DNA of 64,000 nt from Phoronis australis (taxonomy: Eukaryota; Animalia; Phoronida), in NCBI GenBank assembly GCA_002633005.1, contig NMRA01000165.1, forward strand, positions 96,280-160,279, read 5' to 3'. Both the position numbers and the translations under genes were made by a program. Positions within the stretch are counted from its first letter, which is position 1, and every line of letters begins with the position of its first letter. Shown here piece by piece: positions 51,901-57,900 of the stretch. The notes below the pieces were generated by a model. That model saw only the letters and a list, made by a program, of their open reading frames with translations. It had not been told where the DNA came from and made no database searches.

Positions 51901-54900
51901 GGACACTGTGTAAAAACAAAACAGACAATTTACTACTGGATAATATGACAGATGATAGATACACTACACAATTAAGAATTACATCAGGAGTTTGGCGACA
52001 TTCAGACAAAAGTGAAGACTAAGATCAATATTCTACTGCCTCACAAGGATGCAGTTGTGCTGATAGATATAAGATGAAAACAATTGTAATGAACTAAAGC
52101 AAATCACAGGTTAATAAAAATAATGTAGCACATTTATTGCTATTTGGAAAGACCTCATTCAATAATTCATTATCCATTCATACATTCCTCTAATTCTATA
52201 ACACAAGATCCGGTAAAAGAGAAAATGGGTGATCGTGGGGCCTATAATTATATAATTTTTTTTAAAAGTTCAGGCATAGGCAGTCTCACACAGGGCACAG
52301 TAGCTCCACTGTAATGAAACCCTCGCATCACCCTTGTAACTACAGAATATCACTGTGACCACTGTACAGCTGTATATGAGTGATGAACTGAAGCCATCCT
52401 ATAAATGCCTGTAGTCATCTGTTCTCCCATGATGAAGCACAAGGCTTTGTCTCCAGTTTTAGAACTATGATAAGCTTGAGCAGTAACTGAGTCTTGACTT
52501 AGGCATATCACAGAGAAATTTGCAAACTTCAACATAACAAAACAAGCGTTGGGTGGGGTTTCATATCTTAAGGACTTGAGTTTTGTAAACTTGTACTTCA
52601 TCACAATCCTTGCTAACAATGCAAAGACACAGAAATAGAGGTTGAAAGTACATTATTTTGTAGATATTGTTTAATAACATAATGGCTTATATAAATGATC
52701 TGCACATCATATATCAAGTAATTTTTTACCTCAAACACCTAAAACAGTATGTTTTCAGAGAAATCTTATCTATAAAGATGCATGCAGGATTTGTAGTAAA
52801 AAATCTCATTCCATTTGACGATCGATGTGGACGGTTGTATGAAACAGTCCCAATAGACGGTCAACTATGCTCCTTATATTTTCAGTGCACTTGTGAACTG
52901 TGGTTATATTTTTCCACCTCTATACCTTTATTGACCTCTTCCTTTACCTCTTGACAATTTTTGAAAATAGATCTGAAAACTGAGACCATATTCCAATGAA
53001 AATAGACAGGGGCGTTGTATGAAAAGGCCCCATTTTATATTCAACGTAAAAATATATAGGACCCTGGTTTATATTTATCGTAAAGCTTACTCTCTGAGTA
53101 TCTCAGCTGAAACTTGGGGTAGCAATTAAATGAAGAAAAAACCTGAACCAACAGTGTAATTTACACAAAATACGCAAATGCACAAAAATTTAAAGCTGCA
53201 ATGCATCTCTTCGCTAAGCTGTAAACGCTGATTTCTTAACCAAAGAGCTTTGGGCACGGTCAATGCCTAATGAATACAGCTCAAGTCATACACAATGTCA
53301 GCTACCAGCACCCTTTTCGAACACATAATTTTAATTCCATACATTATAGATGGCATTGCAGTAACACATTGGTAGTTTATAGTCCCATCCACACACAGCC
53401 TATACTAAACAACTTGGACTAGTACAACTTACCCTATGCAAACTTTTTAAGTAGAGCGTCCAAATACACATATTCCATAACAACTGGGTAAGGCTCCGGT
53501 GTGTGACAATGAATAGCTAATGAGAATACGGGGCGTAAAAAAGACCTGTCGGCATGCATGTGTACCCGCAACTGATAATTACTTGCGCCTTACCCCAGGT
53601 TTGCACACAGCAATTGCAAGTGGCTCCTAGAACAAGTTGTACCCTACCTCTATAAGGTGGAGTAAAGTGCCGTCCAGACACAAACTTACCCAACAACAAG
53701 TTACTCCTGTAATGAGTTTTCGCTAAGTTTTAGTGCAGTGTGAACACTACTTAACTAGAGCAACTTACCCCACTTGTACCATTCCTCCTTATCGAGGTAC
53801 GATAACTTGTTCTAGGGTAACTAGCACCACTTCTCATACCCGTGTAGCCGCAAACTTTAATTGGGGCAATTGGCAGAAGTAATATCAGATGCGGTTCATG
53901 TACAGACGGGGTTTTCTTTTGTCTGCCATATTTGATTTAGGAGTTCATTAATTACGGTATCATGCACAGAGTGGCAGAACTTCCATCTTACCCTATAATT
54001 ATAGTGTGCGGTAAGATGCATTAGTGCAAGATGTTCTAGGGTAGGCTGTGTGTGGACGGAACTGAAGTTGTCACAAGTGGGGCAAGTTGCACTAGTTAAA
54101 ATAGCATTCACACAGCCTCCAAAACTAGCTACAACTTGTTGTGTACTTAGTCACACAATAACAGGATGTTTGTAGGTTGTTATTGTTTATGAGTTTAGTA
54201 GTTTAATTGGTATTATGTCATGCGATTCCTAGTACAGGAAGTGTGTCATAGGTAACGTATCATATGTTGTTATGTAGTTGTGTGTATATATATTGTGATG
54301 ATATGTAGAATAAATCAGTTCAGTGTTCAGCTCAATTCTGTTCCCGTGTTGTTTATGCTATATTCTGTATCGCTGTCCTCGCTGTCGTTCGGGTCGCCTC
54401 CAGCTTGGAGTATACGTCTCGTGCTAGGCTGTCTCCCACATGCAACTTTAATGTGCCCCTTTTTCTTACACTTGTGACACGTTGAATTCTTGAACCAACA
54501 TGCCTCTGGATGGTGTGAGGGCTTGGCACATCTGTAGCACTCGGTGCTGGCTTTCCCCTTTGGTCTTGCCTTTGGATTGTCAACTCGCCGGCTTTTCTGG
54601 TCCCAATTTTTCCTTTTGGCCTTTACCACCTTTACGTCAGTGGAAGCTATATCACCTTTCATGGTTTTGTTTTCCATGAAAGTATTTTCTCTGGCTAAGG
54701 CGAACTCGACAGTTTCGTTAAACGTCAGTTCCTTTTCCCTTGACTTCTCAAGCAACTTTAGCGAAGTCTGCTCATTAGCAATTCCGCTAATAAGTCTGTC
54801 CCTCAATTGCTCGTCCAGTTTATCACCAAACTTGCAGGTAAGACTGAGGTGTTTGAGCGCGACTACATAGTCCGTAATCGACTCACCTCTATTTTGGTCT

Positions 54901-57900
54901 CGTTTGATAAACTTTCTCCGTTCCGCAATTGTCAGTCGTGGTCCTGCCAAGTGTTTCGTCAGAGTCTCCTTTAACTCTCCGTATGTCTTCTGGTTGGGTT
55001 TGGCTGGGCTGACCAGATCCCGTACAATTCCATAATGTTTCTTGCCAATGGAATGCAAGAACATTGCTGCCACTTGCTTCTTCGTGAAATCTGTTTCCCC
55101 ATTCGCTTGTAGAAACAGTTCAAACCTTTCCAAGTAGCATTCCCACTCCTCGCTACCATCATATTCACTGGAAAACGGGGGCAGGTAACTTTGTGAGCTC
55201 GCAGTCATCTCGTCGCCACTGTTGTGTATCTTACTTTGTCAAATAAAGTAGACACTCCATGAACTACGCAGTGAAACGAACAGAATTGAACTGAACACTG
55301 AACTGATTTATTCTACATATCATCACAATATATATACACACAACTACATAACAACATATGATACGTTACCTATGACACACTTCCTGTACTAGGAATCGCA
55401 TGACATAATACCAATTAAACTACTAAACTCATAAACAATAACAACCTACAAACATCCTGTTATTGTGTGACTAAGTACACAACACAACTCTTCCAGGAAT
55501 TACTTAATTGTTCTTGGGTAAGTCTGAGTGTTGATGGCACTATGACACACATGACCTTGTCCAAACCTCACACTTGACCTGATGATTGCTGGACTGTGTT
55601 TATATAGTGTCCCATGCACTAAATGGACATTAAACTTCATGGTATGATCAAAGGATACACTGAGTTGAGCCTGACAGAGTGTTATGCAACAAGTGCACAT
55701 GTCAACTCTGTGAGGATGTTCTCCCAGTCGGCTTGAATATGGCAAAATAAGCAGTTGCAAAAAATTAGCTATGGTAAAATCTTACAAATTCAGACCAAAA
55801 ATAATTGTCATAACGGATTTTTAGTTATTTCAAAAAGCTTTTAACAAAGCTGCAATAGCCCGCAATTGTCTGATAGTTAATCTATACATAATAGAACTTA
55901 AAGTATTTATTTGGAGGAAACTTTATTAAAAAATATGTAAAATTCACTATGTCATGTCCTAAAATCAATAACTACTTGTGTATTCTTTGGGAGGGGGACA
56001 TTCTCCATTTACTCAAGGTAATTGAATACACACAGCATTACCATCAAGTTCATTGAAACTATGCATTTAAGCTAGTTCTTATGGATTTCTTTGTATCGTA
56101 TTGATGCAAACCCACGTGAGCTTATGACTGTGTGGGTATCGTGCAGCATTCTCCACAACCTGTCCTAACGTGTCACAGCAACCACTTTGGAAGCACTTGC
56201 GACATGTTTGAATGGTCACCGACCCCGAACAAGCTAGTTGTTTTGTGGAATCATGTATTATCTTTAAAGATGTTAAAACAATTGCCAAAAAGTCCTGCAT
56301 TACTCATTTTAGATACGGTAAACATTTGAGTTAACCACAATAAAGCCCTGGGTGCTCAAGTTGGCAAGCCTGTGAGCGCTTAAATAAAAATTGTCAAAAG
56401 TAGAGTTGGGCACTATAATGACACCAGTAATGGTGCAGTTCCAACCTGTTTGGATTATCAGTTGTGACGAACACTGATCATGTACTTTTCACAGGCCACA
56501 GTTGTACATCCCTTTGAATATTGTCATTAGTTATGTTGCATTTTTGCTCTGCACATTGTTATTGAATGTGTTATTATTAATATTAATATTGTTATTGCAG
56601 TGTTTAGTGGTGCTGTCATAAACATAAACATGAAAAAGTTAATCCTGTATGTGGTCCTGGAAACTTGGCCAAAGGGAAAGTCCTCCTTGTATTGACATCC
56701 AATTACCATACAAGGGATTGTAATGACACACACTGGCAACAATATGAATGAAGTCATGTAATCAATATCCAGACAAGGGAGGCTCAGATGTTCAGTGAGA
56801 CAGTGTTATAAACAGTAATGATATCCTGTAAAGGACATGCCAGATAAGCTTGTCCAACAAGTAGTGAGTCACAGCCATCAAGTTTGCCTGTGAGTTACCT
56901 CAAGAAACAATCAAATTGGTAATAAAGTGAAGGTACTTTGAAATTAGTTAACTACAAAAAAGAAAAATGTAAACTTAAATAAACATGGTAAATGTTTGAA
57001 AAGCTGTAAAATAATATTTATGAAACAGGCCCCACTTGACTCATATTTACTGTTCAAAAGACTCTTACTTAATTCTTCCAGGTCCATTTGTGCATGATAA
57101 AACCTACAGCTCAGTAACAAGTGACTAATTAATTATATCTATACAATGTATGTGGTGAAGTGTAGATTGATGTAAATGTTCACTTGTAACATTGCAATAG
57201 TGATACAGAGGAAAAATAACATTAAACCAACATGAGAGACCTGCACAACTGTTATCAACCAAAGACTACACCCTATAACATACACCTGATAAGGCATGGA
57301 TCCATTAGGAATGCAATCTACTCTACTGCTGAATGTCAAAGGACTAATGGCAACAATGAGGTCCACATGATAACTTATTGTTTAACTTAATCAAGTGAAC
57401 AGTAAGTATACTGGGGGCACTCCACCAGCCACCAAGTTGATACTGAGGTTATCAAAGGAGGGCATGTCCCATTCACTTCACATCAATAATTCATAACTGA
57501 CAGACCTCTTATTCATAGGGAGTGAACCAGTCACTGGCCTCAGCAAAGAACAGCTGACAGCACTCCAGTTGACAGGCCACTAGTGCACCACATTCAACCC
57601 TTAACCCATACTGTGGTAGCTCCAGCGGCAAAATAAAAATCATTACTGTTGAATAGGCTTCTTGAAATTATCAGCTTGAACTAGAGCTATCACACGACAC
57701 ATTAGGTTGTGTTCTTGTGATTTTATACCAAATCGCTGATTCTTGATGTTCTCGACCAAACCTTCACCGAAATCAAGGCTGATGTCTTTACCATTTACAC
57801 ATGCTTAAAATACTCCGCTATTTTACACGTGGGATTTGGCTCAGCAGTAGGGCGTTCGGTTGCTTTAGAAGAGCAAGTGGGTTCCATTCTACTCTATTGC

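Follow-up and report, generated by a model that had tools for sequence, protein, structure and literature searches.

A defective Gypsy-type retroelement copy with two outward U3 ends in a myosin VI intron of Phoronis australis

Replication of retrotransposons with long terminal repeats (LTRs) in the standard cycle needs direct R repeats, a polypurine tract (PPT) and pol. Mag-lineage Ty3/Gypsy elements typically have a short LTR, a 5-bp target-site duplication (TSD) and a Ser or Leu primer binding site (PBS), as described in PMC3286476. Abnormal copies produced by template switching have been reported by Sabot and Schulman (2007, PMC1950507) and in PMC5131818; in the cases given there, an abnormal switch is combined with a normal TSD and near-identical outer LTR parts, and the outer LTRs are direct, with one U3 and one U5 end. 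Here we analyse a short retroelement on a 64,000-nt stretch of the Phoronis australis contig NMRA01000165.1 (the window, in whose coordinates all positions are given). The element resembles Mag-lineage gag-pol elements of the K02A2.6-like echinoderm type in its Gag, and a short LTR and 5-bp TSD are common to both (PMC3286476). Unlike a Mag gag-pol, this copy is without pol, a PPT or a direct 3' LTR, and its second end is an inverted U3; compared with the described template-switch products, the switch here changes strand.

The unit measures 1348 bp (54137–55484) and reads, on the minus strand, as LTR, one spacer base, PBS-like stretch, open reading frame (ORF) and inverted arm. The full LTR (55220–55484, minus strand) is 265 nt long, with TG...CA ends and a short terminal inverted repeat of its own: 9 nt are the same at its U3 start and in its U5 end when the latter is read as reverse complement. 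A TATA-like run lies at LTR nt 149–156 and an AATAAA at LTR nt 173. The inverted arm (54137–54343, plus strand) corresponds to LTR nt 1–207 with the U3 end outward; it is the reverse complement of 55278–55484 over 207 nt, with a single mismatch at 54331, and the identity stops abruptly at 54344. Given the position of the AATAAA, the arm spans U3 and probably R, ending about 30 nt past that signal. No PPT was found ahead of the inverted arm, where the longest purine run in the preceding 63 nt is 5. The 10-nt PBS-like stretch (55209–55218, minus strand), a putative tRNA-Ser site, begins one base after the LTR and directly abuts the ATG at 55208; the 64-kb window held no tRNA gene for comparison. 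The ORF comprises 293 codons (54327–55208, minus strand), and its final 10 nt, stop included, fall inside the inverted arm. It takes in the Gag region in full; its translation shows two CX2CX4HX4C knuckles, and Pfam matched it to Gag only below threshold (Retrotrans_gag, E=0.0037). The first-pass annotation of this DNA had described the 265-bp LTR, the 207-nt inverted arm with one mismatch, the missing PPT and the flanking CAACT, all of which we re-found in the sequence; the terminal inverted repeat of the LTR is an addition to that description.

Read evidence came from five runs: four from one study, in which 0.67–0.83 of sampled words were found, and one Hi-C run under the same species label. 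Runs X1–X4 are given as contigs, their run type is guessed ('DNA?'), and contigs show presence, not absence; X5 is the sole raw-read DNA run, of low coverage and read to about 4 in 100. X1–X4 resemble RNA sequencing (RNA-seq): the ratio of depth at the LTR start to that in gag is ~29,000:1,000 in X4 compared with ~228:46 in X5, which is DNA, and the predominance of one gag variant per sample in X1–X4 is likewise RNA-seq-like. Because X1–X4 may be RNA, we did not use their depths as copy number.

The element is flanked by CAACT on the left (54132–54136, plus strand) and on the right (55485–55489, plus strand); two random 5-mers of the window agree 0.13% of the time. It interrupts a host repeat resembling a miniature inverted-repeat transposable element (MITE; 53666–55541), which has 34-nt terminal inverted repeats (TIRs) at 53666–53699 and 55508–55541 and high read depth in four runs. 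A paralogue of this repeat (60666–60792) aligns to both element flanks with a 5-bp overlap and contains CAACT once. CAACT is likewise single in an X2 contig, in which 207 nt of right flank align with 0 differences, 1355 bases are skipped and 4 other letters stand instead, and in one X5 DNA read with the same joint. The X2 contig and the X5 read show an empty site, and the insertion is therefore polymorphic. Thus, the 5-bp TSD that the annotation had called genuine is genuine, with CAACT single at empty sites. Seven further X5 DNA reads run from CAACT (54132) into the LTR but differ upstream, which suggests another family insertion after the same 5-mer, by chance or by target preference.

Both ends of the element are also seen outside the assembly. 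In an X1 contig of depth 5.1, 80 nt of left flank run straight into U3, of which the first 43 nt are present; to judge by depth arithmetic, this contig has the window's flank alleles in 54099–54136, with 2 differences further out. On the right, the flank is continuous with 160 nt of arm in a second X1 contig (24 differences) and with 29 nt of arm in an X3 contig (0 differences). Both flanks therefore abut U3 starts in data independent of the assembly.

The element belongs to a multi-copy Ty3/Gypsy (Mag-like) LTR retrotransposon family of ordinary type, of which it is a truncated copy. High-depth X1 and X3 contigs follow gag to 54337 and then continue into 1146 nt of other sequence, and 59 X5 reads leave gag at the same position into this parent continuation, whereas 159 family LTR reads depart from the left arm at 54343. 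The two exits overlap by 7 nt (54337–54343), a microhomology between parent gag and antisense LTR that marks the switch point; at random breakpoints, an overlap of at least 7 nt has a probability of 0.0004. In X5, 104 reads extend past the U3 start and agree at 0.72 with one sequence, purine-rich beside the LTR, and 89 reads exit at U5 into mixed sequences, with an agreement of 0.42, the pattern expected of normal direct-LTR copies. The depth of gag in X5 is ~10–18 times that of 8 chosen low-depth flank bins. The arms share minority alleles (at 54258, the family base is present in 132 of 146 X5 reads), so that one arm was copied from the source of the other. At least two gag variants exist in the family: X1 and X3 contigs match the window over 54505–55247, and an X2 contig and many X5 reads differ from it at 54717, 54920, 54966 and 54987.

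Gag is 46–56% identical to its five best protein matches, three of them from named echinoderms; five of 13 protein matches were kept for comparison or cited, and four were aligned. Three of six longer relatives, 46–48% identical to Gag, continue in one frame, and relative P0002 encodes protease, reverse transcriptase (RT), RNase H and an rve integrase in Gypsy order (PR-RT-RH-IN) in a single ORF. The features fit the Mag lineage, of which the element, itself devoid of an RT, is a putative member. The uninterrupted 293-aa Gag of the first-pass annotation thus stands as an ORF length and falls as a natural whole gene, its stop being supplied by the arm while the family continues past 54337; to call the unit 'Gag-only' is misleading, as the ORF is a gag-pol cut just ahead of protease.

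We saw no sign that this copy has been amplified. In X5, the family base is present in 64 of 66 reads at 54356 and in 179 of 181 at 54331, which leaves no more than two reads at either position that can carry the copy's alleles (for 54356, a 95% upper bound of 10.5% of family gag copies). No contig with the copy's junction-side alleles was present in X2, X3 or X4, and one, at single-locus depth, was present in X1. The 64-kb window contains no second copy, the junction pattern had 0 matches in metagenome contigs, and the exact Gag protein was absent from the protein collection searched. Among 73 candidate related metagenome loci, six were confirmed, at 26–50% identity; inverted repeats of at least 40 nt occurred in 0 of these 6, a weak control because the loci are short and distant, and the direct repeats in three of them sit at contig ends and resemble assembly overlaps. 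The copy is thus a likely one-off in the reads examined, and this single-copy result, on which the annotation had made a one-off accident depend, comes from one low-coverage DNA sample.

With a probability of about 0.55, we interpret the element as one aberrant reverse-transcription product, made by a single illegitimate template switch and inserted through two U3 ends. In such a route, PPT-primed plus-strand DNA would halt at LTR nt 200–207, near the predicted end of R; on a sense template, its 3' end would find 7 matching nt at the end of gag and pair there. In the role of a minus strand, it would then copy gag, the PBS and U5-R. Annealing of another plus-strand strong-stop DNA and completion of both strands would give a linear DNA with two U3 ends, which the family integrase could insert with its normal stagger to leave the 5-bp TSD. 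Junctions of LTR template switches have a median microsimilarity of 6 bp (PMC5131818), and both switches at short matches (PMC5131818) and normal integration of the switched products (PMC1950507) are documented, in direct orientation. Lacking a PPT, pol and the direct R repeat that first-strand transfer uses, the copy should be a dead end. The annotation had offered a one-off two-U3 product of template switching as one of its readings, and the empty sites, the U3 joins at both flanks in X1 and the 7-nt junction microhomology support it. No description of this exact product was found in the literature searched, which leaves out most subscription journals.

Several observations weigh against this origin. 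No listed contig or read crosses the internal junction at 54343/54344, and the X1 piece with the copy's alleles ends at 54337. The window and the X1/X3 family contig differ at four positions, three of which lie within 79 nt beside the junction (p=0.0024); such a cluster is compatible with an assembly mosaic, with a recombinant or with error-prone repair. The interior in sample S1 appears flipped and shorter than that of the window: in the X1 contig with the left-flank join, 306 nt long, the U3 start is followed by 104 unaligned letters and these by gag, read on the opposite strand from 54415 down to 54337 and free of differences. Further, pol was seen in relatives and not in the family reads, which reach at least 1146 nt past the cut. 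The 9-nt terminal repeat of the LTR offers a route by rearrangement after integration that also keeps the TSD, the data here fit both routes, and both homologies that it would use are present (9 nt between the U3 and U5 ends, 7 nt at the junction). Finally, the T>C excess in X1 (25 of 67 changed places, compared with 15 of 99 in X2 and X3 together, p=0.0015; 36 of 281 in X5), in itself a point in favour of this reading, comes from a test that counts clustered sites of one contig as independent, in a run whose type is guessed.

The alternative that survives best, possible but doubtful in our estimate, is that both U3 ends are real and that the assembled interior is wrong or one of several states, such as a flipped or a short-hairpin form; it is compatible with an origin either by reverse transcription or after integration. 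A short hairpin would consist of about 147 nt of arm, 79 nt of gag and 200 nt of arm, filled out by the assembler with family sequence. This would account for the opposite-strand gag of the 306-nt contig, whose length implies a 147-nt arm and a skip of 922 nt (54416–55337) falling exactly on a 5-nt microhomology (54411–54415 and 55333–55337). The window has five N runs, and its 54505–55247 matches the dominant X3 family contig. However, the skipped part keeps a minority base at 54504, where 24 of 28 X5 reads, like the X1, X2 and X3 contigs, have the family base, which argues against a plain majority fill. The shortening in S1 could be either a genomic deletion or a library jump; if X1 is RNA, the skip may reflect a library reverse transcriptase jumping over the hairpin. 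Splicing was rejected as its cause, because inspection by eye revealed no canonical ends anywhere in the 5-nt microhomology.

Rearrangement after integration, which we consider unlikely, would start from a normal copy that was inserted first and then altered by a double template switch in replication or repair. A strand arriving from the left flank would switch at the 9-nt LTR terminal repeat onto a U3 end, copy 207 nt and return at the 7-nt microhomology, with pol and the 3' LTR lost and the TSD kept. The private changes at 54331 and 54356 lie near the junction, where error-prone repair would be expected to leave them. By contrast, this route requires two switches rather than one; the five runs contain, at thin coverage, only inverted-filled or empty alleles at the site and no full-length one; and an arm ending ~30 nt past the AATAAA would mean more for reverse transcription than for repair.

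It is improbable that the inversion is an assembly artefact and that the site really holds an ordinary element with direct LTRs, or two insertions in opposite orientation, one on each of two alleles. The gapped assembly, the multi-copy family and the internal junction that no listed record spans all leave room for such an error, but in X1, an independent run, the left flank continues into 43 nt of U3, far more than the 9 nt that the U3 and U5 ends have in common, and the right flank continues into 160 nt. Moreover, the T>C excess suggests that the two arms are in one transcript, and two opposite insertions at the same 5 bp would be unlikely.

We give very little weight to the idea of a copy-back defective LTR retrotransposon, a two-U3 panhandle re-copied by a helper and caught at low copy number. 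Such re-copying is conceivable because a helper's plus-strand strong-stop DNA would have a complement along the full length of the inverted arm in a read-through RNA. The same complementarity, together with clean TG...CA ends and a 5-bp TSD that recall Ginger elements in outline (PMC2836005), could speak for a mobile non-autonomous inverted-LTR class moved by helper enzymes, the undescribed class that the annotation had proposed. Of the readings given a probability, this is the one we hold least credible: the 59 X5 reads that follow the parent, the scarcity of the copy's alleles in X5, the single allele-bearing contig in X1, the lack of a further copy in the window, the 0 metagenome junction matches and, weakly, the six distant loci all tell against it. 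One-ended integration followed by repair, known from proviruses with truncated DNA, short junction homology and copying of their own DNA from either strand, was rejected, since it should not leave an exact 5-bp TSD such as this element has and, in the cases described in PMC5041404, usually comes with long host duplications, deletions or inversions.

The element lies in an intron of the myosin VI gene (approximate limits 51110–59700, minus strand), between exons near 59.7 and 51.0 kb. In the predicted fold of the myosin VI pre-mRNA, the arms pair fully into a 207-bp duplex. The X1 right-arm contig, with its 24 differences, was not among the listed pieces when the left arm alone was matched at 90%, which suggests that the differences lie in the arm; the 29 nt of arm in X3 are unchanged. 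A T>C change on the plus strand reads as A>G in the myosin VI transcript, which is minus-strand; A-to-I editing would produce changes of this direction, and A>G is the ADAR signature on long duplexes formed by inverted repeats (PMC5625713). The hairpin is therefore likely to be edited by ADAR, judging from counts in which few sites were seen singly, and a polymorphic 207-bp hairpin in this intron is a likely ADAR substrate.

The myosin VI gene occupies 27700–61270 on the minus strand, with an SH3-like exon whose ATG is at 61267, motor exons at 51.1–37.1 kb, a lever arm at ~36.4–34.8 kb and a cargo-binding domain at ~27.8 kb. The MITE-like repeat is high-copy, and two of its copies lie in myosin VI introns (53666–55541, which hosts the element, and 60666–60964). 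Elsewhere in the window, 1–4937 and 17000–24700 (minus strand) are two degraded copies, 91–96% alike, of a different Ty3/Gypsy element and hold pieces of gag, RT, RNase H and integrase. Three ORFs at 17020–18616, downstream of one such copy, look env-like by eye, with a basic cleavage-like motif and a C-terminal hydrophobic stretch, and had 0 Pfam matches at E 0.01. An intronless aldo-keto reductase ORF (11388–12389, plus strand; Pfam E=1.1e-48) stands among repeats and is possibly a retrocopy. At 42579–43077, a 249-nt direct repeat (97% alike) surrounds a single N at 42828 and probably represents a scaffold overlap that was left unmerged.

Being one dead copy, the element carries little biological weight. 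If it did arise by reverse transcription, it would show, in a natural germline setting, a Gypsy-type integrase inserting two-U3 DNA with a clean TSD, and one 7-nt slip would have turned an LTR element TIR-shaped, a point relevant to the kinship that has been proposed between LTR ends and Ginger TIRs. If the copy-back idea were true, the element would be a counterpart of copy-back defective viral genomes and a bridge from LTRs to Ginger-type TIRs. LTR finders that demand direct repeats would be expected to overlook such copies.

The word 'inverted' is absent from the texts of PMC1950507 and PMC5131818, the nearest descriptions of switched LTR products. TR-GAG elements (PMC4350172) are described as shorter than 4 kb, with an LTR, a PBS, gag without pol and a 5-bp TSD, all of which the element matches at 1348 bp; however, their LTRs are direct, a PPT is present and their many copies differ in TSD, none of which is seen here. 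DIRS-1 has inverted terminal repeats around a gag-like ORF, as does the element. DIRS elements are characterized by an internal complementary region and a tyrosine recombinase (PMC7192593), whereas the longest internal match to the ends in our element is 6–7 nt, and, unlike DIRS, it has a PBS and a TSD, contains no tyrosine recombinase and has relatives that encode a DDE integrase (rve). Ginger transposons have TGT termini, TIRs of 40–270 bp and Gypsy-type ends (PMC2836005), and the 207-nt arms here likewise start with TGT; metazoan Ginger elements, as that source describes them, have a 4-bp TSD and an integrase-like transposase, compared with the 5-bp TSD, gag, PBS and arms derived from a normal LTR found here. 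Twin-primed L1 insertions are also inverted, truncated one-offs with TSDs (PMC2837659), but they are non-LTR elements made by target-primed chemistry. Thus, the element lacks defining features of TR-GAG, DIRS and Ginger and behaves as a defective Gypsy copy.

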